Counted from the stretch's first letter, positions 5,637 through 48,047 are shown. The stretch: 64,000 bases of DNA from Methanothrix sp. (GCA_040770465.1 JAXGJB010000001.1:64001-128000), one strand, 5' to 3'. The notes: generated by a model not told the origin, from the letters alone. Translations and numbers: made by a program.

Positions 5637-5756
5637 ACGACAGCTATTTCGATCGCGTCTCCCCTTCCCCCATCCCACACTAAGCCGAATGCTATTACCT
5701 TCTTTCCTGAGATCAATAACCTTTAAACAATCCCCCGCCTTACCCTCCCCTCATCC

Positions 5757-23640: not shown

Positions 23641-24453
23641 TCAAGCTCTGACGTGGATCCCTCTCTCGGCGAGGTACCGTTTCACCTCGTCGACCCCCCA
23701 CTCGCCATAGTGGAATATGCTGGCTGCCAGGGCTGCTGAGGCCCCGGTCTTCAAAAAGACCTCGTATATGTGTTCGGCGTTGCCGCAGCCGCCAGAGGCG
23801 ATCACCGGGATCCGGACCCGTTTGCAGACGGCGTCGGTGAGGGGCAGGTCGAACCCGTCGTAGGTGCCGTCTCGATCCATGCTGGTGAGGAGGATCTCGC
23901 CGGCCCCGAGCCTCTCAGCCTCCATCGCCCATGCTATGGCGTCGACCCCAGAAAACTCCCTTCCGCCGTAGAAAGAGCACTCAAACCAGGATTCTCCCTG
24001 GGGGGTGGGAACAGAGATACGGCCTTCGGTGGGGTTGTCCCTCCGTTTCGCGTCTATGGCGACGACGCAGGCCTGGCTCCCGTACTCCTCGGCGATCTCG
24101 CCGATGATCTCGGGCCTCTTCAGGGCGGTGGTGTTGACGGTGACCTTGTCGGCCCCGGCCTTGAATATGTTCCTGACGTCGTCGACGGTCTTTATCCCGC
24201 CGCCAACGGCCAGGGGGACGAAGACGTTCTTGGCGGTATCCCTGATGACGCTCTTCATCGTCTCCCGCCGATCGGAGGATGCGGTGATGTCGAGGAATAC
24301 GATCTCGTCTGCCCCCTCCTCGTAATACCGGGTGGCGAGCTCCCAGGGGACCCCGGCGTACCTGATCTGCTTGAACTCAATACCCTTCACGACCCTCCCC
24401 TGGGGGACGGCGAGGTCGCAATCGAGGCAGGGTATTATCCTTCTTGCTAACAT
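23641..24453 (-). CDS. hisF: Imidazole glycerol phosphate synthase cyclase subunit
   Basis: [43 protein letters not shown]. Confidence 0.96.
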
Positions 24454-25049
24454 CTGGTCAGCCTCACAAAGTTATCAAGGATTTTTAGACCCTTCTGCCC
24501 CGACTTCTCGGGGTGGAACTGGACGGCGAAGAGGTTCTCCCTTGAGACCGCCGCGGCGATCTCGGTGCCGTAATCGGTTGTGGCGGCCAGTACCGATCCG
24601 TCTTTTGGGACGCAGAAGTAAGAGTGGACGAAGTAGAAGAAGTCCTCGTCAGAGATCCCCTCCAGGATCTCGCCCTCCTTTTTTATGGTGAGGGTGTTCC
24701 ATCCCATCTGGGGGACCAGGACCGAGTCAGGCAGTCTGACCACCTCTCCTTTTATCCAGCCGAGCCCCTCCTCGGGGCTCTCCTCGCTCCTCTCAAAGAG
24801 GACCTGCATCCCGACGCATATCCCCAGGGTCGGCGTCCCGCCCTCCAGGGCCTCCAGGATGACGGCCTCGAACCGGGAGAGCCGCCTCATGCACCGTCCA
24901 AAGGAACCGACCCCCGGAACCACGACCCCGTCGAACCTCGTCAGGTCCTCCGGCTCGGTTACGAGCTCGGGGCCGGCCTCGATGTGTTCGAGGGCGTTAT
25001 AAATGCTGAAGAGGTTTCCCACCCCGTAATCGACTACTGCAATCGTCAA
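24447..25049 (-). CDS. hisH: Imidazole glycerol phosphate synthase glutaminase subunit
   Basis: DYGVGNL, PGVG, GICVGMQ, YFVHSY, QFHPEKS. Confidence 0.96.
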
Positions 25050-25237: not shown

Positions 25238-27298
25238 TCATTCCGCGGGCGCTATCTTGCAGGCCGCCATCTTGTACTCCGGGATCTTGGATATGGGGTC
25301 TCGCGCGTCGGAGGTGAGAAGGTTCGCCCCGTAATAGTGGAAGGGCATGAAGACCATCCCCGGCTTGACCGAGTTCGTCAGCCTCGCCTTCGCCCTCGCC
25401 TCTCCCCTGACCGTCGAGACGACCACCATGCTGCCGTCGGCGATCTTCAGGCGGGACGCGTCCTCGGGGTTCAACTCCACGTACAGCTCGGGGTCCCTCT
25501 CCATGAGGGAGGCGCTCCTCTTGGTCATGGAGCCGCCGCAGTAGTGGACGACTATCCTGCCCGTCGTCAGGAGGATGGGGTACTCGGCGCTCGTCACCTC
25601 CGCAGGGGGGACGTTCTCGACGGCTGCGAGATTTGCCCTGCCGTCCGGCGAGGAGAACCTCTCGGTGTGGAGGATCTCCGTTCCAGGGTGGTCCTCTGTC
25701 GGGCAGGGCCAGGGCACGCCGCCGGGCTTGGATATCCTCGACTTCGTAGCCCCCTTGTAGGCAGGAACCGTACGGTTGATCTCCTCTAAAACCTCTGAGG
25801 CGGAGGCGTAGTTGAATGAGGCGGAGGCGTAGTTGAAGTCCAGCCCGAGCTTTCTTGCGATCTCGCAGATTATCAATAGCCCCTCTTTAGCCTCTCCGGG
25901 CGCGTCCACGGCCTTATCGACCCACTGAACCCGTCTCTCCATGGAGGTGTAGCTGCCGTCCTTCTCAGCCCAGGCGGCGGCTGGAATGACGACGTCGGCG
26001 AGCCTTGCCGTAGGCGTCATGAATATCTCCTGGACCACCAGAAAGTCGAGGCTCTCAAGAGCCTTGGTGGTCTTTGAAGTGTTCGGATCGCAGATGACGG
26101 GGTCTTCGCCAATTATGTACATCGCCCTGATCTTCCCTTCGAGGGCCGCATCCATCATCTCGGTGGAGGTCATCCCCGGCCCCTCGGGGAGGCTTTCCGC
26201 CCCCCATGCGGCCTTGAAGAAATCGACGGACGCGGGATCAGCCGCCCTCTTATATCCTGGATAGAACTCGGCGATGGCGCCCATATCGCAGGCTCCCTGG
26301 ACGTTGTTCTGGCCTCTCATGGGCATGATCCCAGCCCCTGGCCTTCCCACCTGGCCAGAGATCAGGGCGAGGTCGGCGCAGGCCCTGACGTTCTCGGTGC
26401 CGCAGACGTGCTGGGTGATCCCCATGGAGTAGAGGAGGGCCGAGGCCTCCGAGCGGGAGTAGAGCCGGGCCGCAAGGGCGATCTCCTCGGCCGGCACCCC
26501 CGTCAGCTCCGCGGCCTTCTCGACGGTGAACCCGTCCAGGCTCCGCAACAGGTCCTCGAAACCCTTCGTCCGATCGGCGATGAACCTCTCGTCTATCAGA
26601 CCTTCGTCTATCGCGACCTTCATCATCCCCCTGATGAGATCGATGTCGGTTCCGGGCGCAAGCCTCAGATGGAGGTCTGCCATCCAGGACGTATGGGTGA
26701 TCCTGGGATCGACGACTATGATCACAGCCCCATTGTCCTTGGCCTTCTGGACCCACCGAGAGACGACGGGGTGGGCCTCGGCCAGGTTAGTCCCTATGGC
26801 CAGGATGCATTTGGCGTTCTCCAGATCCCTGATGTTGTTGGTCATAGCCCCGGTGCCGAGGGCCCCACCAAGTCCCACCACCGTAGGAGAGTGGCAGAGT
26901 CGGGCGCAGTTGTCGACGTTCGGCGATCCCAGGAGCCGGGCCATCTTCTGGATGACGTAGTTCTCTTCGTTGTTGCACCTCGATGAGGCGAGAAATCCGA
27001 GGGATCGGGGTCCGTGATCTTTGACGGCCTTTCCGAGCCCCTTTGTCACCAGGTCCAGGGCCTCTTCCCAGGAGATTCTTACCCACTCGCTCCCGACCCT
27101 CCGCATCGGGTATCGGAGCCTCTCCTCGTGGTTGAGGATCTCCAGTACCGAGTTGCCTTTGGGGCAGAGGCCTCCCTCTCCCGTCGGATGGTCGAGCATG
27201 TACTCCATCCCCGTAACACGCCCTTTATCCACCACCAGGTAAAACCCGCAGCCTACGGCGCAATAAGGGCAGACAGACGCAATTTTTTCTTCGGTTAT
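25238..27298 (-). CDS. fdhA: Formate dehydrogenase alpha subunit (Mo/W-bisPGD, Cys-type), copy 2
   Basis: CPYCAVGC, LCPKG, DNCARLCHSPT, RGQNNVQGACDMG, PEYK. Start placed at ATA 27298 by alignment with copy 1. Confidence 0.88.
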   Translation of the reverse strand: MTEEKIASVCPYCAVGCGFYLVVDKGRVTGMEYMLDHPTGEGGLCPKGNSVLEILNHEERLRYPMRRVGSEWVRISWEEALDLVTKGLGKAVKDHGPRSLGFLASSRCNNEENYVIQKMARLLGSPNVDNCARLCHSPTVVGLGGALGTGAMTNNIRDLENAKCILAIGTNLAEAHPVVSRWVQKAKDNGAVIIVVDPRITHTSWMADLHLRLAPGTDIDLIRGMMKVAIDEGLIDERFIADRTKGFEDLLRSLDGFTVEKAAELTGVPAEEIALAARLYSRSEASALLYSMGITQHVCGTENVRACADLALISGQVGRPGAGIMPMRGQNNVQGACDMGAIAEFYPGYKRAADPASVDFFKAAWGAESLPEGPGMTSTEMMDAALEGKIRAMYIIGEDPVICDPNTSKTTKALESLDFLVVQEIFMTPTARLADVVIPAAAWAEKDGSYTSMERRVQWVDKAVDAPGEAKEGLLIICEIARKLGLDFNYASASFNYASASEVLEEINRTVPAYKGATKSRISKPGGVPWPCPTEDHPGTEILHTERFSSPDGRANLAAVENVPPAEVTSAEYPILLTTGRIVVHYCGGSMTKRSASLMERDPELYVELNPEDASRLKIADGSMVVVSTVRGEARAKARLTNSVKPGMVFMPFHYYGANLLTSDARDPISKIPEYKMAACKIAPAE

Positions 27299-27332
27299 GC
27301 CAACACCTTCTGCTAATATTTTCAGCGCCCTC

Positions 27333-27752
27333 TCACGGGCTCTTCCTGCACCTTCCAAGCACCATCTCTCGAGTTGCCCTCTCCGCCTCGATCTTCCGGC
27401 GGCAGGTGGGGCAGACCCGGATCCATTCCAGCCCCTCAGAGTCCTTCTGGGAGTCGGCGGGGAGGACCGACTCGATCCTTTTGAGCATCGGCTCCGTGGC
27501 GTACCGCGACCCGCAGATCTTGCAGGCCACAAGGGCGAAGGAGACCTCCGGTTCCGGAACCGACTCGTCGAGGGGGACGAGGGTCAGAGCTTTTGCCGGG
27601 CAGAGCTCGACGCAGAGATCGCACTCCTCCCGACACTTTTTCCAGTGGATGGACCGCTTCGTCTCGGTCTCGGTTCGGACGATGTTCTGGTTGGGGCAGA
27701 CGTTGGAGCAGGAGCAGCAGCCAAGGCAGAGATCCGGATCGACTTTGATCAT
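27333..27752 (-). CDS. 4Fe-4S ferredoxin-like protein with extra CxxC pairs
   Basis: CLGCCSCSNVCP, CREECDLCVELCP, CKICG, CPTCRR. Confidence 0.85.
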   Translation of the reverse strand: MIKVDPDLCLGCCSCSNVCPNQNIVRTETETKRSIHWKKCREECDLCVELCPAKALTLVPLDESVPEPEVSFALVACKICGSRYATEPMLKRIESVLPADSQKDSEGLEWIRVCPTCRRKIEAERATREMVLGRCRKSP

Positions 27753-28186
27753 CTTCGAACCCCCTGAACGGCAGCTCGCGCGGCTCGGGCCTGCGCCCTG
27801 CGAGACGCCAGATCGAAATCAGTGGTCAGAGCGTTGGCAGGACAGGTAGTGACACATGCGGGCTCAGGCCGCCCTTCGCAGAGGTCGCATTTGTGGGCTA
27901 TCTTATCGGTCCATACGACCCCGAAGGGGCAGGCGAGGCTGCATAAACCGCAGCCGGTGCACTTCTCGACATCGAAGGCCGTCCGCTCCCCCTCCTTGAA
28001 AAGGGCTCCGGAGAAGCAGGCGATGGTGCAGTTTGCCTCTTCACAGTGGTGGCAGAATATGGGAACCGAGGCGGAATCACCTACAAAATGGACTTTGACG
28101 TGGCCGAGGCCTTCGTGGACCCGCTCGCAAGCCACCTCGCAGGACCGGCAGCCGATACATCTAGCGACATCGACGTAAACTGGCAT
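27749..28186 (-). CDS. 4x[4Fe-4S] electron-transfer protein (HycB/DmsB-like)
   Basis: CIGCRSCEVAC, CHHCEEANC...C, CTGCGLCSLACPFG, KCDLC...PACVTTCP. Confidence 0.9.
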   Translation of the reverse strand: MPVYVDVARCIGCRSCEVACERVHEGLGHVKVHFVGDSASVPIFCHHCEEANCTIACFSGALFKEGERTAFDVEKCTGCGLCSLACPFGVVWTDKIAHKCDLCEGRPEPACVTTCPANALTTDFDLASRRAQARAARAAVQGVRR

Positions 28187-30223
28187 TCAGTCCCTCCGGG
28201 AGATCTTGCAGGCCGAGACCTTGAACTCCGGTATCCTTGCCTCGGGGTCGGTGACCTCCGATGTCAGGATGTTCGTCCCGGGGAAGTGGAAGGGCATGAA
28301 GACCACCCCTCTTTTCACCCCGTCGGTGAGACGGGCGCGGGCCTCGGTCTCTCCCCGGGGCGTGGTCACCATCACCTCATCGCCGTCGGCCACCCTGAGC
28401 CGCAGGGCGTCGGTGACGTTCATCTCCACGTACAGGTCCGGCTCCCGGCTGATTAGAGACGGGCTCCTTCTTGTCATGGACCCGGCGTTGTGGTGGACGG
28501 CGACGCGGCCCGTGGTCAGGATGAAGGGATAGTCCCAGCTCGACTCCTCTGCCGCCGGCCGATAGGCTACCGGCACTATGGCTGCCCGTCCATCGGCGAG
28601 CTTGAAGCCTGAAGAGTGGAGGATCGGCGTTCCTGGATGGTCGGCGGTGGGGCACGGCCAGACGAGGCTTGATTCGCCGAGCCGATCCCGGGTTATGCCG
28701 GCGTACTGGGGGACGGTCCGGTTTATCTCCGCCAGAACCGAGGCCGCATCGGGATAGTCGAGCTCGATCCCGAGGGTTCTGCCGACCATGCAGACTATCT
28801 CGAGGTCGGAGAGGGCCGATCCTGGGGGATCTACGGCCTTGAAGCTCCACTGGACCCTTCTCTCCGTATTGGTGAAGCTGCCCTCCTTCTCCGCCCAGAC
28901 AGCCCCGGGCAGAACGAGATCTGCGAGGTTCGCCGTGGCGGTCATGAATATGTCCTGGACCACCAGAAAATCGAGGTTCTCGAGAGCCTCGTGGACGTTC
29001 CGGCTGGAGGGGTCGGAGTTTGCCGGATCCTCTCCGACGATGTACATCGCCTTGATCTCCCCCGCCGCTGCAGCATCGATCATCTCCGTGGCCGTGAGGC
29101 CGGGTCCCAGAGGAAGCCCCTCGGCGTCCCAGGCGGAGGAGAAGTATCGAACCGTCTCGGGATCGTCCGCCTTTCTATATCCGGGATAAAATTCGGCCAG
29201 AGCCCCCATATCGCAGGCGCCCTGGACGTTGTTTTGGCCCCGAAGCGGCATCACCCCCGTCCCCGGCCGACCGATGTGGCCGGTGATGAGGGCGAGGTTG
29301 GAGATGGCCTGGACGTTCTCCGTACCTGTGGTGTGCTGGGTGATCCCCATGGAGTAGAGGATCGATGAGGCCGGTGATATGGCGTACGCCCTTGCTGCCC
29401 TAACAATATCGTCGGGGGATACGCCGGTGATCTCCGACACATTCTCTGGGGAGAAATCTTTGACCGATTCCCTCAAGGCCTCAAAGCCTCGTGTATTCTT
29501 GGCGATGTAATCTCCGTCAAAAAGACCCTCTTTGATTATGACGTGAGCCATCCCGTTCAGGAGGGCCACGTCCGTTCCTGGCTCAAGCTGCAAGAATATG
29601 TCCGCCATCCAGGAGGTGTGAGTCTCCCTCGGATCGGCGACGATCACCACCGCGCCGTCGTCATGAGCCCTGTGGATAAAGCGAGATATGACGGGATGGT
29701 TCTCCGCCAGGTTCGACCCTATGATGAATATGCACTGTGAGCTCGCTATATCGGGGATGGGGTTTGTCATCCCCGCCGCTCCCAGCGTCCGGTTCAGACC
29801 CACCACCGAAGGGGCGTGGCAAAGCCGGGCGCAGTTGTCGACGTTCGGCGAGCCGAGAAGGCGGGCCAGCTTCTGGATCAGGTAGTTCTCTTCGTTGGTG
29901 CATTTGGAGGAGGCGAGGATGGCGATCCTCCTCGGGCCGTGCTTTCTGATGGCTCCGCCCATCTCCCGGACCAAGAGGTCCATGGCCTCGTCCCAGGATA
30001 TTTCGACAAAACCCTCCCCCTTCCTCTTCAGAGGAGAGGTGAGCCTGTCCTGGTGGCGGAGGATCTCCAGGGCCGCGTTCCCCTTGGGGCATAACGCTCC
30101 CTCGCTGACGGGATGGTCCCGCATGTACTCTATCCCGGTGGGGTTTCCCTTCTCTACCGCGATGAACAGTCCGCAGCCTGCCCCGCAGTAAGGGCAGACC
30201 GTTGGAACAAGCACTCTTGTCAT
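28187..30223 (-). CDS. fdhA: Formate dehydrogenase alpha subunit (Cys-type), copy 1
   Basis: CPYCGAGC, DNCARLCHAPS, LRGQNNVQGACDMG, PEFK. Confidence 0.92.
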   Translation of the reverse strand: MTRVLVPTVCPYCGAGCGLFIAVEKGNPTGIEYMRDHPVSEGALCPKGNAALEILRHQDRLTSPLKRKGEGFVEISWDEAMDLLVREMGGAIRKHGPRRIAILASSKCTNEENYLIQKLARLLGSPNVDNCARLCHAPSVVGLNRTLGAAGMTNPIPDIASSQCIFIIGSNLAENHPVISRFIHRAHDDGAVVIVADPRETHTSWMADIFLQLEPGTDVALLNGMAHVIIKEGLFDGDYIAKNTRGFEALRESVKDFSPENVSEITGVSPDDIVRAARAYAISPASSILYSMGITQHTTGTENVQAISNLALITGHIGRPGTGVMPLRGQNNVQGACDMGALAEFYPGYRKADDPETVRYFSSAWDAEGLPLGPGLTATEMIDAAAAGEIKAMYIVGEDPANSDPSSRNVHEALENLDFLVVQDIFMTATANLADLVLPGAVWAEKEGSFTNTERRVQWSFKAVDPPGSALSDLEIVCMVGRTLGIELDYPDAASVLAEINRTVPQYAGITRDRLGESSLVWPCPTADHPGTPILHSSGFKLADGRAAIVPVAYRPAAEESSWDYPFILTTGRVAVHHNAGSMTRRSPSLISREPDLYVEMNVTDALRLRVADGDEVMVTTPRGETEARARLTDGVKRGVVFMPFHFPGTNILTSEVTDPEARIPEFKVSACKISRRD

Positions 30224-30284
30224 CTCAATCCCTGAACTTGGTTCCTAAAGACTTCAATATGTATAATTACAATAATATACACAC

Positions 30285-31097
30285 TCAGTACGCATACAGA
30301 TTGCTGTAGGGCCTCTTCGACCGGGGAGTCAGCTTGACGAATTGAGAGCCCGTTATCTCCTCTTTGTCCAGCCCCACCTCGGGGAAGCGCTCGACGAACT
30401 TTGAGACGTACTGGTCCAGGACCGCCCGGTCGGCCTCGTCTATGGGCGAGATCTCAACCTGGTCTCCCACCTGAGACTGGTCTACGCTCCCCCGGAGGTA
30501 GATCACGCCACCGTGCATGCCGGTCCCTATGAAGTTAGCCTGGTGGGTCTGGCCTTCCAGGTCCAGGATTATCACGATCCCCCCGGCCATGTACTCGCCA
30601 AGGAAGTCCTGGGACCTGCCACCCACCACCAGAACGGGCCTTTTGCCCTCGTACTCTTTCATATGGAGGGCGGTTCGATAGCCGCAGCCGTCCCGGATGT
30701 AGATCTCGCCTCCACGCATGGAGAAGCCGAGGACGTCTCCCGCCCTCCCCTTCACGGTCACCTCTCCGGCGTCCATGGTGTTTCCGACGCCGTCCTGGGC
30801 GTTGCCGTGGACGGCTATGGTATGGCCGTAGAGGAAGGCGGCGAGGTCGTTTCCGGGGGTTCCGAATATCTCGATCTCCATCTTGAGACGGTTTGGCGAG
30901 TAGAGGCGGGTGCCTATGTACCTCTGGCCGCAGATGTTGGTGATGCTGACCTTTCTCTTGCCGGATAGCATCAGGTCTCGCAGCCGGTCGTTCAGCTCTC
31001 TCGTCTCGAGGTTTGATGCATCTATATCGGCTGCCATCATCTCTTCAGTTGCCTGATCTGCATTTAGACTCCGTTCGGATACAACAGCTTTAGCCAT
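30285..31097 (-). CDS. Archaeal glutamate synthase GXGXG beta-helix subunit (GltB3)
   Basis: GQRYIG, GTPGNDL, GNAQDGVGNTM, DFLGEYMAGG, IGTGMHGG; ATG at 31097. Confidence 0.88.
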   Translation of the reverse strand: MAKAVVSERSLNADQATEEMMAADIDASNLETRELNDRLRDLMLSGKRKVSITNICGQRYIGTRLYSPNRLKMEIEIFGTPGNDLAAFLYGHTIAVHGNAQDGVGNTMDAGEVTVKGRAGDVLGFSMRGGEIYIRDGCGYRTALHMKEYEGKRPVLVVGGRSQDFLGEYMAGGIVIILDLEGQTHQANFIGTGMHGGVIYLRGSVDQSQVGDQVEISPIDEADRAVLDQYVSKFVERFPEVGLDKEEITGSQFVKLTPRSKRPYSNLYAY

Positions 31098-31102
31098 CTT
31101 TC

Positions 31103-32617
31103 TCACTCTCCGGCTCCTTTTATTCCCAAAACGTCCAGTTCCCAGTCGTAGAGCCCCACCCCGCGCAGGTGGTCTCTGTTTCCTCGGAGGCTCTCCAGGG
31201 CGTTGATCCCCATCCCTCCCAGCATCTCGCTGATCTCGTGAGACCAGGCGGAGATTAGATTGGACAGCCTCGTGGAGGCGATATCCACGTTCAGTCTGCC
31301 GGAGAGGCGCGGGTCCTGGGTGCATATTCCCCAGTTGCACTTTCCGGTGTAGCATTTCTGGCAGAGGGTGCAGCCCATGGCGATGAGGGCCGCAGACCCT
31401 ATGTAGACGGCATCTGCCCCCAGGGCGATGGCCTTGATGATGTCGGAGCTGCAGCGGATCCCGCCCGCGGCGATGATGGAGCATTGGTTGCGGATCCCCT
31501 CCTCCCGGAGCCTCCGGTCGAGGGAGGATATGGCGAGCTCCGTCGGTATCCCCACGTTGTCCCGGATCGCCTTGGGGGCGGCGCCCGTCCCGCCCCGGAG
31601 GCCGTCGATGGCGATGATGTCGGCGCCGGCCCGGACGATTCCCGAGGCGATGGCGGCGAAGTTGTGGACGGCGGCGATCTTGACTGAAACGGGCTTCTCG
31701 TAGTTTGTAGCCTCTTTGAGAGCGCCGATGAGGGTTGCGAGGTCCTCGATGGAGTAGATGTCGTGATGAGGTGCCGGAGATATGGCGTCGGTCCCCTGGG
31801 GGATCATCCTCGTCTTGGCCACTGTGTCGGATACCTTCTCGCCGGGGAGGTGGCCGCCTATCCCGGGCTTTGCCCCCTGCCCCACCTTGATCTCCACCGC
31901 CTGGGCCGTGTTCAGGTACTCGGCATCTATCCCGAACCGGCCGCTGGCGACCTGGACGATGGCGCACCTTCCGAACTCGTCTCTCATCTCGAGGGGTAGG
32001 CCGCCCTCGCCGGTGTTGAAGTAGGTCTTGGACCTGCATGCAGCCGTGGCTAGGGACCGGAAGGCGTTGTAGCTGATGGCTCCGTAGGACATCGCCGAGA
32101 AGAGGATGGGGGTCTCCACCACCAGGTTGGGGTAAAGCTCGGTCCTGATCTCCACGTCTCCGGAGTCGGCTGAGATATCCATCAAATCAGGCTTTCGTCC
32201 CAGGAATGTCCGAAGCTCCATCGGCTCCCGCAGGGGATCCAGCGATGGGTTTGTAACCTGGGAGGCGTTGAGGACGATGTGGTCCCAGTAGATCCGGAAG
32301 GGCTTGTCGCTTCCGCAACCTGTGAGGATGACGCCTCCCGTCTCTGCCTGTCTCTTGAGGTCCTCAAGCTTCTCGCGGGACCAGGATGCGTTTGCCCGAT
32401 AGTACGAGGGGGAGGGCCTGACCACTATGGCGTCCTTGGGACAGAAGATTACGCATCTCTGGCAGCCGACGCACTTGCTCTCGTCGGAGACGATCCTGTC
32501 GGCTGCCGGATCGTAGGTGTGGGTCCCGAAGGCGCACTGCCTCTCGCAGCCCCGGCACTGGCCGCAGCTCTCTTCGTCCCTTATGACCTGAAACTCGGGA
32601 AAGACGAACGATTTCAT
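31103..32617 (-). CDS. Archaeal glutamate synthase FMN subunit (GltB2) with N-terminal 2[4Fe-4S] domain
   Basis: CGQCRGC/CVGCQRC, AMSYGAIS, NTGEGG, GQGAKPGIGGHLPG, CxxCxxCxxxxC, GICTQ. Confidence 0.93.
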   Translation of the reverse strand: MKSFVFPEFQVIRDEESCGQCRGCERQCAFGTHTYDPAADRIVSDESKCVGCQRCVIFCPKDAIVVRPSPSYYRANASWSREKLEDLKRQAETGGVILTGCGSDKPFRIYWDHIVLNASQVTNPSLDPLREPMELRTFLGRKPDLMDISADSGDVEIRTELYPNLVVETPILFSAMSYGAISYNAFRSLATAACRSKTYFNTGEGGLPLEMRDEFGRCAIVQVASGRFGIDAEYLNTAQAVEIKVGQGAKPGIGGHLPGEKVSDTVAKTRMIPQGTDAISPAPHHDIYSIEDLATLIGALKEATNYEKPVSVKIAAVHNFAAIASGIVRAGADIIAIDGLRGGTGAAPKAIRDNVGIPTELAISSLDRRLREEGIRNQCSIIAAGGIRCSSDIIKAIALGADAVYIGSAALIAMGCTLCQKCYTGKCNWGICTQDPRLSGRLNVDIASTRLSNLISAWSHEISEMLGGMGINALESLRGNRDHLRGVGLYDWELDVLGIKGAGE

Positions 32618-33786
32618 AGCAAAACCTTTCTCGCACTCTTTAGCTCGCCGACGACCGGCTCTCCCCCGTTGGGGGTCCAGACCCGGTCGAGGTGGGGTGA
32701 AATGAGTCTGATGGACGCTTCCTCGCTGGAGATGTAGAACATCTCGCCGCTGGTGGCTGCGGTGAGGGGGCGCAGCCTGATCCTGTCGGTGAGGCCGATC
32801 ATCCGGCCGGTCTCGCCGATGATGATGGCGAAGGGTCCGTTCATCAGCAGGGGCCCGTAGACCATCCGCAGGGTGGTCAAGAGCTTCTTCTCCTTCTCAT
32901 TCATCCGGTCGATGGCGTTCCATATGGGGGGGGCCAGGATCTTGGCCACGATATCGATGGGAAGCTTCTGCCGCCTCATCAGGAGGTCGGCGGCGTAGGC
33001 GATCACCTCGGTATCGGTCTGGAGGGTGCAGGCGTAGCCGTACATCTCCAGGTACCAGCGGTTGGTGCCGTAAGACGAGATCTCGCCGTTGTGGACTATC
33101 GTCGTGTCCAGGAGGCTGAAGGGATGGGCACCGCCCCACCAGGCCTGAGTGTTGGTGGGGAATCTCCCGTGGACGGTCCAGGTGTGGGCCCGGTAGAGCT
33201 CGTCCAGCATGAAGTACTCGCCGATCTCCTCGGGGTAGCCCACGCCCTTGAAGCAGCCCATGTTCTTTCCGGAGCTGAAGACGTAGGCGTTCTCGATTCT
33301 GGTGTTGACCGCCATGATCTGGTCCACGATGAAGTCCTCTTCTGTGCGGCCGCCCCAATCCCCGCCATCTCCACCATTTCCACCATCTCTGGGGAGGACG
33401 AAGTAGCGCCAGAGGAGGGGCGGGTCGCTGACGGGGACGGAGTCGTCGTGAGGGATCTCCTCGTCGCAGACGACGTCGAACTTCGAAGAGAGGAAGGTCT
33501 CGAATTCCCGTTTGGCGGCCTCTTTGGCGACCACGTTCTTGCCGGTGAACATGAGGTGGAAGGCGTAGTAGTCTCGATACTCGGGGTATATGCCGTAAGC
33601 TGCAAACCCTCCACCCAGACCGTTGCCTCTGACCCGCATGTTGGCTATCGCCTTCATGACTCCCTCTCCGGTGAACCGGTCACCGTCCCGGTTCATGGCC
33701 CCGAAGATGGAGCAGGCACAGATCTCCTTGTTGTATAGCTCTCTTCTTTTTCTTCTAATCCCTGGCATAATGATCTCGAACCTCAT
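32614..33786 (-). CDS. Archaeal glutamate synthase class-II amidotransferase subunit (GltB1)
   Basis: ACSIFG, RGNGLGGG, HGRFPTNT..WWGGAHPF, HNGEISSY, DRIRLRP; start may be 33768. Confidence 0.9.
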   Translation of the reverse strand: MRFEIIMPGIRRKRRELYNKEICACSIFGAMNRDGDRFTGEGVMKAIANMRVRGNGLGGGFAAYGIYPEYRDYYAFHLMFTGKNVVAKEAAKREFETFLSSKFDVVCDEEIPHDDSVPVSDPPLLWRYFVLPRDGGNGGDGGDWGGRTEEDFIVDQIMAVNTRIENAYVFSSGKNMGCFKGVGYPEEIGEYFMLDELYRAHTWTVHGRFPTNTQAWWGGAHPFSLLDTTIVHNGEISSYGTNRWYLEMYGYACTLQTDTEVIAYAADLLMRRQKLPIDIVAKILAPPIWNAIDRMNEKEKKLLTTLRMVYGPLLMNGPFAIIIGETGRMIGLTDRIRLRPLTAATSGEMFYISSEEASIRLISPHLDRVWTPNGGEPVVGELKSARKVLL

Positions 33787-33900
33787 ACATCGGCCTGATA
33801 CTCATGAATCGATAACTTGCAGGCAAGAAGTGGTCGCAAGAGAAGGGAGGTCGAGAGCTATTTTATAGGTATTTGAGAAGTCTTGGGAAAGTTTGAGAAA

Positions 33901-33921
33901 CGTTCATAACAATTATGAACG
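33901..33921. promoter_or_regulatory. Perfect palindrome CGTTCATAA-CAA-TTATGAACG upstream of the gltB1 TATA box
   Basis: 9-bp inverted repeat about 40 bp upstream of TATAAAA (minus strand, 33861-33867); near copy upstream of glnA. Confidence 0.6.
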
Positions 33922-33967
33922 CCGAGGTCGGGTGCGGTCCGATTTTGAAACGATCTTGATATCATCC

Positions 33968-34121
33968 CCTGGCCCCGGGCGGCGCCGAAAAGGGCGACCC
34001 CCGCCGTCACCAGGAGCCCCGTAAAGATCATGGCGGAGTTGAAGATCGTCGCCGAGGGCCGGGCGACGACGCTATCGGGCGGCATCGAGGCGCCCAGGTC
34101 ACTGATGGCCTTCTCCGCCAT
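33968..34121 (-). pseudogene. Fragment of a DUF998-like membrane protein
   Basis: AISDLGA...ATIFNSAMIFTGLLV motif, truncated at both ends, next to the low-GC islet. Confidence 0.55.
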
Positions 34122-36169: not shown

Positions 36170-37441
36170 TCAAACGTAAGCCCCCTCCCCGTGCTGGCTG
36201 ATGTCCAGGCCCACCGACTCCTCATGGTGTCCGACCCGGAGCCCCATGGCCGCATCGACCACCTTGGCGATCCCGAAGGTGGCGACGAAGGAGTAGATCC
36301 AGACGATGGCGGCGGCCGCGGCCTGAACTCCCAGCTGGGATGGGTTTCCCGAGAGGAGGCCGGTAGCGCCGATGGAGGCGAAGATCCCGGTGGCCACCAC
36401 CCCCCAGGTCGACCCGATCCCGTGGCAGGCCAGGACGTCCAGGGAGTCGTCCACCTTCTTGCTGCCCCTGATGAAGAGGATGGCATAGTACCCGACCAAG
36501 GCCGCGCCTATGCCTATGGGTATGGCCGCGAGGGGGGTCACAAACCCGGCTGCCGGGGTGATGGCCGCAAGCCCAGCCACGGCGCCGGTGACGATCCCGA
36601 GGGCGCTCGGCGCCCGGTCCCGCCAGGAAAGGAGCATCCAGGTGGTGGCAGCCGCGGCGGCCGAGGTGTTGGTGGCCACGAAGGCGTTGGCGGCGATCCC
36701 GTTGGCGGCCAAGGCGGAGCCGGCGTTGAACCCGAACCATCCAAACCAGAGGAGTGCGGCCCCGAGGACGGTGGTGGGTATGTTGTGAGGCTCCATGGGG
36801 TCCCTGCCGAAGCCCCTCCTCACCCCGATCACCATCGCTATCGCCAGAGCCGAGACCCCGGCGCTGATGTGGACGACGATCCCGCCGGCGAAGTCGAGAG
36901 CCCCCATCTGGGAGAGGAAGCCCCCACCCCAGACCCAGTGAGCTATGGGGTCGTAGACGAGGGTCGCCCAAGCGAGGGAGAATACGAGAAACGAGCTGAA
37001 CTTGATCCTCTCAACGTAGCTTCCGGTGATCAGTGAGACGGTGATGATGGCGAACATCGCCTGGAATATCATGAAGGTGAGAGAGGGTATGGTGAGTCCC
37101 TCCATCGCCTCCATCCCGACCCCCCGCAGGCCAAGGTGGTCGAGCCCCCCGATGACGCCGCCGACGTCGGTGCCGAAGGCGAGGGTGTACCCTATGAGGA
37201 TCCACTGGAGGCTTATAATCCCCATGATCGCGAAGCTGAATATTATCGTCGATATTGCATTCTTCTTTCTCACCATCCCCCCGTAGAAGAGACCCACTCC
37301 GGGGATCATGATCAATACAAGGGCGGCGCTGATCAGGACCCAGGCGTTGTCCGCAGGATTTATCGTGGACTCGGCTGCGGCAGTCCCGATGAGCCCCATA
37401 AGCATCGATAATAGCAAAATTCTTCTTAACTGGAGCTTCAT
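36170..37441 (-). CDS. amtB: Ammonium transporter
   Basis: FYGGMVRKKN, FQAMFA, DFAGGIVVH, LWFGWFGFN, twin His residues, GLDISQHGE. Confidence 0.96.
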   Translation of the reverse strand: MKLQLRRILLLSMLMGLIGTAAAESTINPADNAWVLISAALVLIMIPGVGLFYGGMVRKKNAISTIIFSFAIMGIISLQWILIGYTLAFGTDVGGVIGGLDHLGLRGVGMEAMEGLTIPSLTFMIFQAMFAIITVSLITGSYVERIKFSSFLVFSLAWATLVYDPIAHWVWGGGFLSQMGALDFAGGIVVHISAGVSALAIAMVIGVRRGFGRDPMEPHNIPTTVLGAALLWFGWFGFNAGSALAANGIAANAFVATNTSAAAAATTWMLLSWRDRAPSALGIVTGAVAGLAAITPAAGFVTPLAAIPIGIGAALVGYYAILFIRGSKKVDDSLDVLACHGIGSTWGVVATGIFASIGATGLLSGNPSQLGVQAAAAAIVWIYSFVATFGIAKVVDAAMGLRVGHHEESVGLDISQHGEGAYV

Positions 37442-37746: not shown

Positions 37747-38094
37747 TCAGGTTTCGAACTTTGCCATCTCATCACCACTCCTGATTTTTATCGATCTCGC
37801 CACGGGGCTGACGAATATCCTGCCGTCTCCGATGTTCCCCGTCCTGACGGCCTCGGTGATCGTCTCCACCAAAAAGTCCACCTCATAGTCGCAGACTACG
37901 AGCTCTATCCTCGCCTTTGGAACCGGTGCCGAATTTTCTGTCTTGCCGTTGTATCGGAGCTTTATTCCCCTCTGCTCCCCTCGGCCCATCACCTCGCTGA
38001 TGGTCATGGAGACGAAACCCTTCTCCTCCAGAGCGGCGCGAAGCCTCTCCAGCCTCTCCGGTTGGATTATGGCCTCAACCCTCATCAACGCCAT
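37747..38094 (-). CDS. glnK: Second PII protein with divergent T-loop
   Basis: VEAIIQPE, GRGEQRG, TGNIGDGRIF. Confidence 0.88.
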   Translation of the reverse strand: MALMRVEAIIQPERLERLRAALEEKGFVSMTISEVMGRGEQRGIKLRYNGKTENSAPVPKARIELVVCDYEVDFLVETITEAVRTGNIGDGRIFVSPVARSIKIRSGDEMAKFET

Positions 38095-38344: not shown

Positions 38345-39682
38345 CTACAGCAGCGGCAGATACTTCTCGATCTCCCACCTGCTGACGTCGGTCCTGTACT
38401 CGTCCCACTCGACCTTCTTCGAAGCGATGAAGTTGGTGAAGATGTGGTCGCCGAGAGTCTCTCTCATCAGGTCGCTATTCTCTGTCAGCATCAGGGCCTC
38501 GATGAGGCTTCCAGGAAGCGACTTGATTCCGGCCTTCTCCTTCTCCGCCTCGGTCATCTTGAAGATGTCCCGCTCCATCGGCTCGGGGAGCTCGTACTTG
38601 TTCTTGATGCCGTCCATCCCGGCTGCCAGCATCACCGCAAAGGCGAGGTACGGGTTTGCTCCGGGGTCGGGGCTTCTGTACTCCACCCGGGTGGCGTTCT
38701 CTTTTCCGGGCTTGTACATCGGCATCCGGACCAGGGCCGACCTGTTCCTCCGGGCCCAGGATATGTAGACTGGAGCCTCGTAGCCGGGGACGAGCCTCTT
38801 GTAGGAGTTGATCCACTGGTTGGTGACGGCCGTTATCACCGGCGCGTTCTTGAGCAGGCCAGCGATGTAGTGCTTGCCCAGGTCTGAGAGGTTGTACTTG
38901 TCATCGGGGTCGAAGAAGGCGTTCCTCTTACCCTTGAAGAGCGACTGGTGGACGTGCATCCCCGTCCCGTTCTCGCCGAAGATCGGCTTCGGCATGAAGG
39001 TGGCGTAGTAGCCGTACTGCTGGGCGATCTCCTTGACGACGATCCTGTAGGTCATCACGATGTCGCCCATCCTGAGAGCCTCCTGGTACCGGAGGTCGAT
39101 CTCGTGCTGGGAGGGGGCCACCTCGTGATGGCTGTACTCTACGTTGATCCCCATAGACTCCAGGGTCAGGATCGTATCTCTCCTGAGGTTGCTCCCGGCG
39201 TCCATCGTCGTCATGGCGTCGAAGTAGCCGCCCTTGTCCAGAATCTCGGTACTCTTGTCGTCTTTGAAGTAGAAGTACTCCAGCTCCGGGCCAACATACA
39301 GGTCGTAGCCCATATCCTTCAGCTTCGCCAGGTTCCTCTTGAGGACGTACCGCGGGTCCCCCTCGTAGGGGCTGCCGTCGGGCTGGAGGATGTCGCAGAA
39401 CATCCTGCCCACGTTCTGCCCCTCCTTCGCCCTCCACGGGAGGATCTGGAAGGTCTCGGGGTCGGGCTTTGCCACCATGTCGCTCTCTTCGATCCTGGCG
39501 AAACCCTGGATCGAGGAGCCGTCAAAGCCCATCCCCTCTTCAAAGGCTCCTTCAAGCTCCGATGGGGAGACGGCGAAGCTCTTTGGGAGCCCCAGAATAT
39601 CTGTGAACCACAATCGGACGAACTTGACGCCCTTTGACTCAATCGCCTCAAACACCTTATCCTTGCTGGACGACGTTACCAT
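38345..39682 (-). CDS. glnA: Glutamine synthetase type I-alpha
   Basis: FDGSSI, HHEVAPSQHE, TFMPKP, NSYKRLVPGYEAP; GGAGG SD before ATG at 39682. Confidence 0.97.
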   Translation of the reverse strand: MVTSSSKDKVFEAIESKGVKFVRLWFTDILGLPKSFAVSPSELEGAFEEGMGFDGSSIQGFARIEESDMVAKPDPETFQILPWRAKEGQNVGRMFCDILQPDGSPYEGDPRYVLKRNLAKLKDMGYDLYVGPELEYFYFKDDKSTEILDKGGYFDAMTTMDAGSNLRRDTILTLESMGINVEYSHHEVAPSQHEIDLRYQEALRMGDIVMTYRIVVKEIAQQYGYYATFMPKPIFGENGTGMHVHQSLFKGKRNAFFDPDDKYNLSDLGKHYIAGLLKNAPVITAVTNQWINSYKRLVPGYEAPVYISWARRNRSALVRMPMYKPGKENATRVEYRSPDPGANPYLAFAVMLAAGMDGIKNKYELPEPMERDIFKMTEAEKEKAGIKSLPGSLIEALMLTENSDLMRETLGDHIFTNFIASKKVEWDEYRTDVSRWEIEKYLPLL

Positions 39683-39741
39683 CTCTTTTTTGCCTCCTTG
39701 CTGAAAAGTCGTCCTTGACGATTTATATCTGTTTGAGACGA

Positions 39742-39760
39742 GTTCACAAATGTTATGAAG
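39742..39760. promoter_or_regulatory. Imperfect copy of the gltB1 palindrome (GTTCACAAATGTTATGAAG) just upstream of the glnA BRE/TATA
   Basis: 14/19 identity to 33902-33920; both copies are preceded by GTTTGAGA-N3. Confidence 0.55.
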
Positions 39761-39973
39761 AATTAAGATGGGAGCCGGATCATAGAAAAATCTCTGGGCG
39801 GTTGAAAGCTGGATATCCGGGGCCCAATATCCAGCCGTAAACGATATCCAACAACGCAAACCCGTAGATGGACTCCAGTCTGGAGGGCAAAACTCAATCA
39901 GATTTCGGGACCATCTTCGATCGGATGCCCAACAAAAAACTTGGTCTTGAGAAAAATCCCGGTCTATATCGGA

Positions 39974-45841: not shown

Positions 45842-46810
45842 ATGAGCGAAACCATTAATGACGAAATAATTTGGACGACTCAATCGAGCTTGGACCCAGA
45901 AGTCAAGCCGCTTAAGAATATTCTCATCACTTGCGACTACTCTAGCCAATATTTTGATTCTTTGATTATTTGTGGTGATGCTAAAGAAGAACTCAAAAAA
46001 TTTCCGGATAATCATTTTCAATGCTGTATCACAAGTCCGCCCTATTGGGGACTTCGAGATTATGGCATTCCTCATCAAATTGGAGGCGAGCCAAAACTTG
46101 ACGATTACGTAACTAATTTGGTTGAAGTTTTCAGAGAAGTGAGACGTACACTATCCGATGATGGTACATTATGGCTAAATATTGGGGATTCTTATACGAG
46201 CGGAAACAGAACCTGGAGAGATCCAGATAAAAAAAATCCTGCACGAGGTATGGATTATAGGCCACCTACACCCAGTGGATTAAAATCCAAGGATCTTATT
46301 GGAGTACCATGGAGATTGGCTTTTGCACTGCAATCGGATGGTTGGTTTTTGCGATCAGATATAATATGGCATAAGCCTAATTGCCAACCTGAATCGGTTA
46401 AAGATCGGCCTACAAGATCCCACGAATACTTATTCCTGCTTACAAAATCAGAGAGATATTTATATAACTATGAGGATCTTATGGAGCCCTCTAAGGACAG
46501 AAGGGGTCTGCGAAATCGTAGGACCGTATGGTCCATAAAAACAGAGCCATTTAAGTACTCACACTTTGCTGTTTTTCCTGAGGAACTTATCAAACCATGT
46601 ATATTGGGTGGAAGCAATAGGGGTGATATGGTTTTAGACCCCTTTTTTGGATCTGGGACTGTAGGAATTGTAGGTTTAAAATTGAATCGTAGATTTGTTG
46701 GTATAGAATTAAATCCAGAATTTATTGAAATTGCTCGAAGAAGATTTATTGATGAACATCTAAGCATATCACCAGCGATCAAGAATTATCATTGCAGGAG
46801 GGATATTTAA
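45842..46810 (+). CDS. N4-cytosine DNA methyltransferase, beta class (M.Cfr9I/XmaI/SmaI-like)
   Basis: TSPPYWGLRDY precedes DPFFGSGT; DKKNPAR, KDLIGVPWRLAFALQ, PESVKDRPTRSHE as recalled for CCCGGG m4C MTases. Confidence 0.88.
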   Translation: MSETINDEIIWTTQSSLDPEVKPLKNILITCDYSSQYFDSLIICGDAKEELKKFPDNHFQCCITSPPYWGLRDYGIPHQIGGEPKLDDYVTNLVEVFREVRRTLSDDGTLWLNIGDSYTSGNRTWRDPDKKNPARGMDYRPPTPSGLKSKDLIGVPWRLAFALQSDGWFLRSDIIWHKPNCQPESVKDRPTRSHEYLFLLTKSERYLYNYEDLMEPSKDRRGLRNRRTVWSIKTEPFKYSHFAVFPEELIKPCILGGSNRGDMVLDPFFGSGTVGIVGLKLNRRFVGIELNPEFIEIARRRFIDEHLSISPAIKNYHCRRDI

Positions 46811-47776
46811 TTGACTGGCCAAAGGTATCAAGTGCTGGCGCCTGATATTCAAATTGAGTTTTATTATAGATTGAGATATCTTAATGATAGATACTTGCTA
46901 GATGCTTTGAAGGAAACAGTAAGTAAGTTAGATATTAGAAAAATAGATGATGACCTATCCAATTATGTTGATCCTATATGCTTAAAAAAAGTTGCATCTT
47001 TCGGAATAAGAGGTGAGATATTTTTCCCCGTCCCTTATATAATCGAAGCAAACCCAAAGTTGCTGGGATATTATCGGTTGCTACTAGGAATATCACAAAA
47101 AAATTTTTATTCAAAAGAGCATTTTTCAGGGTTCAAGCCGTTGGAAGATCGAGGAAAGATATCTTCAGATGTAAAACCCCGTATCGAGGATTTGTGCACG
47201 AGCTTGGTTGGAACATCTGAAATATTAATAAGAGAAATTGATATGATTTCACTATCAATGGTCCGGGACTTGCAGCTTTTAACATTAGGAGGACAGTTAA
47301 GAGGCGGGATTAATAACAAAATAGGCGAAATAGCTAAACAGATGGTTTTTGATATGATAAGAGATATAACAGAGCCTTACATCAAAAATGTTAAGGATGA
47401 TTCGATCGAGATCTTAAATGACTCAAACCGTAAAGTAATCATTAAATTCTCAGGTGATCCTGATATCAGCATAACAGAAACGATTGGCGCCACAAATCGT
47501 CCGCTTGTAGCTATCGAAATAAAAGGTGGTTACGATTATTCTAACATTTATAATAGACTTGGCGAGGCTGAGAAGAGCCATCAAACTGCTAAAGATAATG
47601 GCTTTACCGAATTTTGGACTATTATCCGAGTTGATGTAGACATCAATAGGGCAAAAATAAAGACGCCTACTACGAACAAGTTTTTTAATATAAATAAGAT
47701 TCAAAATCCTGATGAGGAAGAATATCACTTGTTCAGGGATTTGTTGAGTTCGATGTTGAGCATTCAGATAAATTAA
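46811..47776 (+). CDS. Type II restriction endonuclease, XcyI/Cfr9I-like
   Basis: Directly follows the MTase; LLGYYRLLLG, LTLGGQLRGG.NN, PD...IEIKGG (PD-(D/E)xK), NRLGEAEKSH. Confidence 0.8.
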   Translation: MTGQRYQVLAPDIQIEFYYRLRYLNDRYLLDALKETVSKLDIRKIDDDLSNYVDPICLKKVASFGIRGEIFFPVPYIIEANPKLLGYYRLLLGISQKNFYSKEHFSGFKPLEDRGKISSDVKPRIEDLCTSLVGTSEILIREIDMISLSMVRDLQLLTLGGQLRGGINNKIGEIAKQMVFDMIRDITEPYIKNVKDDSIEILNDSNRKVIIKFSGDPDISITETIGATNRPLVAIEIKGGYDYSNIYNRLGEAEKSHQTAKDNGFTEFWTIIRVDVDINRAKIKTPTTNKFFNINKIQNPDEEEYHLFRDLLSSMLSIQIN

Positions 47777-48047
47777 TAATTACCTTCTGCTATTAAATGA
47801 CCGCTCGCCTTGCTGAAACCCAACCCAGCATCCAGTACCTCCGTACCCCTCGCCCAATCATCTCCAGCCAAGCCAGAGATTCCCGCGTCATCTGCAACTC
47901 GGCGACCTCGGGATGCAGATTTCTTCAAGGTGGTAAAGCAAGCCCAGTAAGGGGTTGGCAAGAGGCAAGCTTAGGCATCAAACCCGTGAAGGCACCATCA
48001 AAATAAGAGCTCGAAAAACTACCAACACGCCCAGACGGGTGATCTTC

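Follow-up and report, generated by a model that had tools for sequence, protein, structure and literature searches.

A 64,000-nt stretch of DNA from Methanothrix sp. (GCA_040770465.1 JAXGJB010000001.1:64001-128000), hereafter the window, carries a row of genes in which a split glutamate synthase (GOGAT), encoded by gltB1, gltB2 and gltB3, is directly followed by a formate dehydrogenase (FDH) catalytic subunit gene (fdhA1), genes for two small Fe-S proteins of 145 and 139 residues (FeS145 and FeS139) and a second FDH gene (fdhA2). We propose that the trio fdhA1-FeS145-FeS139 encodes a hydrogenase-less FDH arm of the kind found in formate hydrogenlyase (FHL) and hydrogen-dependent CO2 reductase (HDCR), which, co-expressed with glutamine synthetase and glutamate synthase (GS-GOGAT), would pass electrons from formate to GltB2 either directly or via ferredoxin. 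This is a tentative reading of the gene content, to which we assign a probability of roughly 0.45. Coordinates are window-based unless a contig or locus is named.

A large share of the Earth's biological methane comes from Methanothrix and Methanocrinis, which are regarded as strictly acetate-using genera. To our knowledge, no measurement has established which electron donor serves the split glutamate synthases of archaea, and only F420-dependent versions have been proposed. The locus joins these two subjects, namely the purpose of FDH in acetate users and the electron donor of the split enzyme. According to the available part of PMC6687939, Methanothrix metagenome-assembled genomes (MAGs) encode two monomeric FdhA proteins whose role is unclear. 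The available portions of three further papers report that archaeal glutamate synthase (GltS) domains occur as separate open reading frames (ORFs; PMC8097209), that an F420-dependent GltS of methanogens has been proposed from gene context (PMC3448663) and that FrhB paralogues lie beside glutamate synthase genes in anaerobic methanotrophic archaea (PMC9012536). PMC9853277 and PMC12072023 are silent on the cluster in the portions available. Our literature searches found no description of the gltB-fdhA-Fe-S arrangement, which supplementary gene tables may list, or of the cooS-cooF-fdhA cluster described below, and did not find the phrase 'formate-dependent glutamate synthase'.

Make-up of the gltB-fdhA gene row

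Protein families were assigned with Pfam and NCBIfam profiles, using curated cut-offs where these are quoted (Table 1). The family scores bear out the gene identities that a sequence-only reading of the window had suggested before this analysis: seven co-oriented ORFs, all on the minus strand, follow one another in the order gltB1-gltB2-gltB3-fdhA1-FeS145-FeS139-fdhA2. GltB1 contains a PF00310 domain, with Cys-Ser-Ile-Phe-Gly read after a leader of ~25 residues, and its orthologues are 70-87% identical in 60+ loci. The PF01645 match of GltB2 spans profile positions 3-369 of 369 and is preceded by Fer4 families at residues 11-66. In an alignment of 38 GltB2 sequences the Cys of both ferredoxin motifs are invariant, as is a C-terminal cluster (C416, C419, C422, C427 and C432) that includes the putative 3Fe-4S ligands. 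By these profile matches, GltB1, GltB2 and GltB3 together have all three domains of an archaeal split glutamate synthase. Genes for an ammonium transporter (amtB), a PII protein and glutamine synthetase (glnA) lie upstream of gltB1, so that the cluster is part of a larger nitrogen-assimilation row. In relatives of genus g2, glnA lies directly upstream of gltB1, and it is found on the same strand upstream of the Fe-S pair in 41 of the 75 named family loci surveyed below.

FdhA1 aligns end to end with the F420-type FdhA of PDB 9t1s_L (680 bits) and with HDCR FdhF (7qv7_S, 622 bits), and it matches E. coli FDH-H (1aa6) with 507.7 bits. A Cys-His pair stands where 9t1s_L prints X-His, the X being what we take to be selenocysteine, and the PLRGQNNVQG motif is identical; the Cys or selenocysteine is presumably the Mo/W ligand and the conserved Arg presumably belongs to the formate site. 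The same Cys-His and RGQNNVQG motifs can be read in FdhA2. Both proteins score above the curated TIGR01591 cut-off and keep these motifs, by which they are classed as FDH catalytic subunits. No twin-arginine leader was seen on reading FdhA1, which is therefore expected to be cytoplasmic.

FeS145 has four CxxCxxCxxxC-type motifs; among 77 aligned FeS145-type sequences, 11 of its 16 Cys are invariant and the other 5 are ≥90% conserved. Its best NCBIfam matches are to the N-terminal part of AegA (1e-24) and YgfT (5.9e-23), and to HydN, and its best solved relatives are HDCR HycB4 (7qv7_B, 8.8e-25), HDCR HycB3 (5.4e-19), with chain 7qv7_A also among the matches, and the HycB protein of E. coli FHL, its subunit 2 (7z0s_B, 1.4e-17). 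FeS139 combines a Fer4 dicluster with a CxxC...CxxC element, and C9, C12, C15, C51, C77, C80, C114 and C117 are invariant in 45 aligned FeS139-type sequences. It matches the HycF-type profile PRK12387 over profile positions 36-169 of 180 (2.6e-10), at 40 bits and so far below the cut-off of 204, and it matches FHL subunit 6 (HycF, PDB 7z0s_F) over residues 5-120, nearly its full length (4.2e-7); polyferredoxin repeats (FmdF, MvhB) are matched as well. Judged by these relatives, the trio FdhA1-FeS145-FeS139 appears to be the FDH arm of FHL/HDCR without the hydrogenase. A search of 5.8 billion proteins returned 197 homologues of FeS139, the best 120 of which are all ≥67% identical and, wherever the source name gives a taxon, come from Methanothrix or Methanotrichaceae. 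FeS139 is matched in only 15 of 301 genomes of a phylum sample, and by these searches the protein appears nearly confined to the family Methanotrichaceae.

Scanning the cluster and flanking ORFs with Pfam and NCBIfam detected no GltD, FrhB/FdhB, hydrogenase or membrane subunit, in agreement with the sequence-only reading, which had remarked on the lack of GltD, of an F420-binding FrhB/FdhB, of a hydrogenase and of a membrane anchor. Its figure of 61 bp for the gap between gltB3 and fdhA1 (30224-30284) is likewise exact. Across relatives this junction measures 13-82 bp, and in 8 loci only 13-16 bp, which leaves no space for a promoter within the gap. A GGGAT-type Shine-Dalgarno (SD)-like motif precedes the fdhA1 ATG in the window and is always kept in the spacers of relatives, and a sequence scan of the window's 61-bp spacer found no terminator-like site. 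On the strength of the gene order and these spacers, the FDH module is most likely transcribed together with the glnA...gltB genes. A sigma-70 promoter scan gave nothing above chance, its model being bacterial and not applicable to an archaeon. Three metatranscriptome runs, whose contigs were compared at 80% likeness, contained next to no window sequence; the pieces recovered are only 80-90% alike and stem from relatives or unrelated FDHs, none of those listed spans gltB3-fdhA1, and they have no bearing on co-transcription.

Conservation, loss and other settings of the module

The distribution of the arrangement was followed in two overlapping surveys, whose counts are not additive. The first covered 81 family genomes of 16 genera, in 65 of which GltB2 was found, and mapped the window proteins by tblastn onto the DNA downstream; the second covered 75 archaeal loci with a FeS139 relative from named species-representative genomes. 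As most of the genomes are MAGs, apparent gene splits and contig ends could be artefactual, and related genomes are not independent. In the first survey, fdhA1 directly follows gltB3 in 35/65 genomes, belonging to genera g1, g2, g5, g12, g13 and g15; these are the window, 30 other complete loci, one with fdhA1 in two pieces and three cut by a contig end within fdhA1. Ten genomes (g1, g2, g5, g16) have FeS145-FeS139 directly after gltB3 and no intact fdhA1, 14 (g4, g7, g8, g9, g10, g14) have no fdhA or Fe-S genes within at least 900 bp of gltB3, and six are undecidable because of contig ends. The second survey, with record titles naming Methanothrix, Methanosaeta, Methanocrinis and Methanotrichaceae, returned gltB3-fdhA1-FeS145-FeS139 at 46/75 loci and gltB3-FeS145-FeS139 at 13. 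Six loci begin inside or at fdhA1, seven have neither gltB nor intact fdhA1 upstream, one is too short to call, one reads glnA, gltB3 remnant, fdhA1 and the two Fe-S genes, and one has a fragmented glnA and then directly the Fe-S pair. The adjacency is thus not peculiar to this strain, a possibility that the sequence-only reading had raised against itself. In the phylum sample gltB3 is present in 158/301 genomes, and at each of the 21 nearest gltB3 loci outside the family the 1.5 kb behind the gene is free of fdhA and of these Fe-S genes, so that the extension is an acquisition specific to the family. The full arrangement of fdhA with two Fe-S genes was found outside the family in only two genomes of that sample, both of one genus (g23).

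Where fdhA1 has been deleted, the scars differ. The first codons of fdhA1 are joined to its last codons in L054, L060 and L068, and its SD and ATG are joined to the SD and ATG of FeS145, by an identical junction, in L055, L056 and L058; L052 retains a 481-bp remnant (residues 1-107 and 614-678) and L146 a C-terminal one. Beside gltB3, the Fe-S genes remain intact after the deletion in 10/65 genomes, and in three species that share one scar FeS145 and FeS139 evolve with ratios of non-synonymous to synonymous substitution (dN/dS) of 0.10-0.17 at dS 0.13-0.23, so that purifying selection maintains the two genes even where fdhA1 is gone. Each of the ten genomes of the first survey that lack fdhA1 encodes, elsewhere, an FdhA of the clade that comprises fdhA2 and fwd/fdhD-linked genes; this unlinked FdhA has no adjacent Fe-S gene in 8/10, and weak FeS145-like matches (31% and 37%) adjoin it in L095 and L101. 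Retention of the Fe-S pair was considered as evidence for a link to GltB, an argument that is weakened by pairs that have neither gltB nor fdhA1 (7/75) and by these unlinked FdhA genes without a Fe-S neighbour (8/10).

The trio also recurs beside other redox enzymes, which fits a portable module serving as a plug-in electron unit. Paralogous trios lie behind cooS (TIGR01702, 735 bits) and a cooF-like gene at five loci (L102-L106), two from g23 genomes, of another family in the same class, and one each from g7, g1 and g13. The order cooS, cooF-like, fdhA, HycB-like, HycF-like is seen at L102 (9336-13850), L103 (7869-12709), L104, L105, L106, L140, L142, L143 and L144, and suggests a CO-driven CO2 reductase that would convert CO to formate. 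Orthologous trios stand in the same position in four further genomes, from two to three genera, with FdhA 69-70%, FeS145 69-74% and FeS139 51-57% identical to the window proteins. The trio of G009 (g9; 69%, 61% and 48% identical) is at a contig start, so that its upstream neighbour is not visible. A full-length tree places the fdhA genes of the orthologous cooS-linked trios within the clade of FdhA1 (support 96), and the gltB-linked pair of g13 branches outside them, which implies that the context changed at least twice; these trees, like those below, are quick searches with SH-aLRT support only. A third setting is the Fe-S pair behind a gene for a SudB-like FAD/NAD protein (NF004862, ~382 bits) in L167 (5506-7420), L173, L199, L200 and L209, and in L200 and L173 a C-terminal fdhA remnant lies between that gene and the pair.

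The second FDH gene is a different matter. The sequence-only reading had spoken of a double FDH module, and both FdhA identities stand, but fdhA2 is a lineage oddity and not a general feature of the arrangement: it follows FeS139 only in the window, in three genus g1 loci of the family sample and, among named records, in L146, the closest named relative, which has lost fdhA1 and keeps fdhA2. In the trees the fdhA2 genes make up a four-member clade (support 100) nested in the FdhA type linked to fwd/fdhD, whose own support is 94 in a tree of C-terminal sequences and 99 in the full-length one. No ATG, GTG or TTG lies between the FeS139 stop and the first Cys of fdhA2, the nearest in-frame start being a TTG at 27358 that overlaps FeS139; the L024 orthologue has GTG at the corresponding place and the L018 orthologue has no canonical start. 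On the reading favoured here, FdhA2 would be a recent, redundant second catalytic subunit using the same two Fe-S proteins. Its C-terminal half contains a tandem duplication, two copies of one 7-residue unit.

Neighbouring genes and redox enzymes elsewhere in the genome

The features of the row and its flanks are collected in Table 1. In the ORF list, the lengths of gltB3 (584 aa) and fdhA2 (764 aa) are inflated by upstream in-frame starts, homology supporting ~270 aa and ~700 aa, respectively, and the real start of glnA is probably downstream of the annotated TTG. Copies of the 87-aa ORF, 65-68% identical, also stand upstream of gltB1 in L043, L045 and L052. An AT-rich gap of 188 bp separates the cluster from hisH, which follows the cluster in genus g1 loci. 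A nitrogen operator was sought as well; the window has two copies of the NrpR-type pattern GGAA-N6-TTCC, both distant from the cluster, where chance alone would give 2.1, so that the result is uninformative. Two low-GC islands were seen at 4001-6000 (GC 0.485) and 46001-48000 (0.39), compared with ~0.60 elsewhere in the window.

Table 1. Features of the nitrogen-assimilation and FDH gene row in the window and of its flanks
Feature	Position	Strand	Evidence or remark
glnA, glutamine synthetase	38345..39859	-	Pfam Gln-synt_C 437 bits, Gln-synt_N 109 bits
PII nitrogen regulatory protein	37747..38094	-	Pfam P-II 80.6 bits
amtB, ammonium transporter	36170..37441	-	Pfam Ammonium_transp 393.9 bits
87-aa ORF upstream of gltB1	33858..34121	-	no NCBIfam match
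gltB1, class-II glutamine amidotransferase subunit	32614..33786	-	PF00310 (GATase_2) 47.4 bits, cut-off 19.9
gltB2, flavin mononucleotide (FMN)/3Fe-4S synthase subunit with N-terminal 2x[4Fe-4S] domain	31103..32617	-	PF01645 471 bits
gltB3, GXGXG subunit	30285..31097	-	PF01493 99.7 bits, cut-off 32.5
gltB3-fdhA1 spacer, 61 bp	30224..30284	-	AT-rich, SD-like motif, no oligo-T tract
fdhA1, Cys-type Mo/W-bis-pyranopterin guanine dinucleotide FDH catalytic subunit	28187..30223	-	TIGR01591 813.8 bits, cut-off 666.25
FeS145, HycB/HydN-like 4x[4Fe-4S] electron-transfer protein, 145 aa	27749..28186	-	16 Cys, four motifs
FeS139, HycF-like Fe-S protein, 139 aa	27333..27752	-	PRK12387 (HycF-type) match; 4-nt overlap with FeS145 stop
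fdhA2, second Cys-type FdhA	25238..~27358	-	TIGR01591 830.8 bits, cut-off 666.25; start uncertain
hisH	24447..25049	-	TIGR01855 231 bits
hisF	23641..24453	-	TIGR00735 369 bits

The genome from which the window comes is 94.85% complete and holds five full-length FdhA genes, with no sixth found in the assembly. Its one FrhB_FdhB_C match (PF04432; C20:11370-12746, 458 aa) lies, on ORF reading only, among flippase, glycosyltransferase and polysaccharide-looking ORFs with no redox neighbour, and from this context neither an F420-dependent FDH nor the input subunit proposed for F420-dependent GltS seems available. An F420 or NADPH input subunit for GltB encoded elsewhere had been named in the sequence-only reading as evidence that would speak against a formate-driven enzyme. 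As regards the F420 type none was found, the single FrhB/FdhB copy being unrelated; a GltD/GltA-type flavoprotein is encoded on contig C8, though beside another FDH and a SudB-like partner. That neighbourhood (L107, 2633-13302) comprises an FNT channel, the GltA/NfnB-type flavoprotein, an FdhA of 919 aa whose N-terminus is NuoG-like, the SudB-like FAD/NAD protein and a glutamate dehydrogenase, and is possibly an NADP-linked FDH feeding the dehydrogenase. A 529-aa ORF on C8 gives a weak Glu_synthase match (43.5 bits, profile positions 189-309) and no NCBIfam match.

The FNT formate channel of this genome scores 269.7 bits against a TIGR00790 cut-off of 232.3. FNT genes are present in 62/81 family genomes, across all arrangement classes, and in 0/7 of genus g7, and they lie within ~12 kb of an FdhA of the fused 919-aa type in at least nine genomes; as a tracker of the gltB-linked module FNT is not discriminating, since it occurs in every class. 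On contig C13 (L108), a 679-aa FdhA (C13:31493-33532) lies between an FdhD sulfurtransferase gene (L108 3696-4496, TIGR00129, 154 bits) and ORFs labelled FwdB/FwdD by length, reading and tblastn label only, and relatives of this FdhA adjoin fdhD or fwd-like genes in several genomes. The genome's own cooS (C6:938-2782, 739.7 bits) is ~940 bp from a contig end, so that a former FDH trio behind it would not be visible.

Proposed role, alternatives and known systems

The trio may best be viewed as a soluble, portable module that connects formate/CO2 with an Fe-S wire and that, in this organism and most relatives, is placed 3' of the glnA...gltB genes. Formate would be oxidized at the Mo/W centre of FdhA1, and the electrons would travel by way of the [4Fe-4S] cluster of FdhA to FeS145 with its four clusters, and on through FeS139, to enter the N-terminal 2x[4Fe-4S] domain of GltB2 directly or through the ferredoxin pool; the 3Fe-4S cluster and FMN would then reduce 2-iminoglutarate, which arises when 2-oxoglutarate reacts with the ammonia that GltB1 releases. 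As GOGAT is solely an electron consumer, the direction behind gltB would be formate oxidation; behind cooS-cooF, CO2 reduction is the likelier direction. Formate is abundant in syntrophic digesters, and with a CO2/formate potential of ~-430 mV and a much more positive couple of 2-oxoglutarate plus ammonia and glutamate, the energetics are favourable. Formate use would spare acetate-derived reduced ferredoxin while GS-GOGAT runs. Coupling is favoured by an old, tight and widespread gene order inside a GS-GOGAT/ammonium row with an SD-type internal start, by the ferredoxin-type entry of GltB2 itself together with the lack of another dedicated input subunit in the cluster, and by the fact that the other homes of the module are also redox enzymes with Fe-S entry or exit points.

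A number of observations weigh against this coupling, and several of them favour instead an autonomous, ferredoxin-linked FDH or CO2 reductase that works on the general ferredoxin pool, for example to provide formate for purine steps or to remove stray formate, the site behind gltB3 being a historical insertion or a sign of loose co-regulation. The orthologous trios behind cooS-cooF belong to G028, G018, G003 (g4) and G011 (g11), where nothing of the kind follows the gltB cluster. In G017 (99% complete) the Glu_synthase domain is missing genome-wide, and a frameshifted gltB3 remnant lies there between glnA and an intact fdhA1-FeS145-FeS139, whose genes show dN/dS values against relatives of 0.07-0.13, 0.05-0.11 and 0.09-0.13, respectively, compared with 0.06-0.15 for gltB-intact pairs. 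Nine genomes of the same genus, g2, gave no GltB2 match; in five (G017, G033, G042, G047 and G066, 94-99% complete) no Glu_synthase domain was found, and these presumably assimilate ammonium by glutamate dehydrogenase only. Conversely, 14/65 genomes run gltB with no part of the module behind it, so that GOGAT does not require it. The distinct scars imply at least six independent fdhA1 deletions, Fe-S pairs stand behind the SudB-like gene at five loci with no gltB nearby, and an unlinked fwd/fdhD-type FdhA could, as client, equally explain why the pair is retained. The AT-rich, TATA-like window spacer could hold an internal archaeal promoter, and the GltD/GltA-type flavoprotein on C8 scores 602 bits against TIGR01316. 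GOGAT without the module, the module without GOGAT, the frequent loss of fdhA1 and the lone Fe-S pairs together disfavour an obligate link. The autonomous enzyme also gains from the hisH-hisF genes that follow the cluster in genus g1 and from the unclear role given to monomeric Methanothrix FdhA in the available part of PMC6687939; against it stand an order and very short junctions kept over six genera and dozens of species, since a constitutive need for formate fits placement with GS-GOGAT poorly, the partner-specific wiring suggested by the presence of redox enzymes with Fe-S entry or exit points in every context found, and the genome's three other FdhA genes, any of which could make formate for biosynthesis. 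On balance we consider it unlikely, although a serious competitor. All observations are accommodated if the trio is a self-contained FDH-plus-wire module that its gene placement, probably along with protein contact or shared ferredoxin, joins to varying partners, GOGAT being the one here. The stronger version, in which the module physically complexes with whatever enzyme is encoded ahead of it, is doubtful; it would make gltB123 a formate:2-oxoglutarate/glutamine oxidoreductase and a fourth class of glutamate synthase, cooS-cooF a CO-driven CO2 reductase and the SudB-like pair an NAD(P)-linked FDH.

Two further accounts are much less probable. The resemblance of FeS145 and FeS139 to HycB and HycF of E. 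coli FHL would also suit an input arm of an energy complex on the FHL plan, in which the HycF/NuoI-like FeS139 docks on a membrane module of the NuoB/D type, either a hydrogenase or an Fpo complex lacking FpoF, and formate is converted to H2 or used to reduce methanophenazine; the genome indeed has no FpoF/FdhB-type redox subunit, and formate splitting to H2 and CO2 is reported for M. concilii and strain CALS-1 (PMC6687939, available part). Yet the genome encodes only one large subunit of the NuoD/HycE type, which lies on contig C1 and outside the window, with no other [NiFe] hydrogenase signal ([FeFe] hydrogenase not having been searched for), and no membrane or hydrogenase gene adjoins the trio at the loci inspected, which makes such a complex very improbable. 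Nor is it at all likely, by a slightly smaller chance still, that fdhA1-FeS145-FeS139-fdhA2 is a separate, partly decaying unit with no functional relation to gltB and with its own promoter in the AT-rich, TATA-like spacer. The lack of a canonical fdhA2 start in the window and in L018, the frequent fdhA1 deletions and the split genes in L072, L190 and L215 would be expected of such a unit, but the spacers of 13-16 bp in 8 loci are too short for a promoter, dN/dS is ~0.1 for all three genes of the trio, indicating purifying selection, and both FdhA proteins keep their catalytic residues and exceed the curated cut-off.

If formate oxidation is indeed coupled to GOGAT, the conserved glnA...gltB-fdhA-hycB-hycF row predicts that these organisms, which live near the thermodynamic limit, can meet the cost of assimilating ammonium with formate and so spare ferredoxin. 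Should the module be a plug-in unit, obligately acetate-splitting Methanothrix would keep several FDHs because formate is an auxiliary biosynthetic reductant and not a methanogenic substrate, and the cooS-cooF-fdhA variant suggests a CO-to-formate route in methanogens. The natural fdhA1-deleted, gltB-deleted and cooS-linked variants form a ready comparative set.

Among known systems, E. coli FHL (FdhF-HycB-HycF-HycG/E; 7z0s) has the order of FDH, HycB-type four-cluster protein and HycF-type protein that is reproduced here, with FeS139 as the putative HycF-type member; in contrast to FHL, hydrogenase and membrane subunits are absent nearby and the neighbour is a glutamate synthase. HDCR (FdhF-HycB3-HycB4-HydA2; 7qv7) provides the solved structure nearest to FeS145 and the one ranking second for FdhA1, and in it a soluble FDH is joined to a partner oxidoreductase through small poly-[4Fe-4S] proteins, a plan that the proposed module shares. 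In place of an [FeFe] hydrogenase, GOGAT would act as the partner here, and CooS/CooF in relatives, and the HycF-like third subunit has no counterpart among the HDCR subunits just named. F420-dependent FdhAB differs in that no FdhB is encoded with FdhA here, and FdhA1 has a Cys in place of the presumed selenocysteine of 9t1s_L, the FDH chain that it matches best. In AegA and YgfT of E. coli, a family named by NCBIfam for formate-dependent uric acid utilization, the N-terminal four-cluster domain matches FeS145 and is fused to a GltD-like flavoprotein, whereas FeS145 is free-standing and its partner would be of the GltB large-subunit type; the formate link of these proteins we take from the family name. 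As far as the available text of PMC8097209 describes them, the amidotransferase, FMN/3Fe-4S and GXGXG parts of GltBD and of ferredoxin-dependent GltS are all present in the window, but on three polypeptides, with a 2x[4Fe-4S] domain belonging to GltB2 itself and no adjacent GltD, the GltD/GltA-type gene being on C8. There is also a parallel in gene arrangement with the putative F420-dependent glutamate synthases of methanogens, FGltS I/II, which, in the available part of PMC3448663, are split or archaeal GltS genes with an adjacent electron-input gene whose function was proposed from context only; there the input is an F420-binding FrhB/FdhB/FpoF homologue, of which none is adjacent here, and the candidate in its place is an FDH with Fe-S wires.

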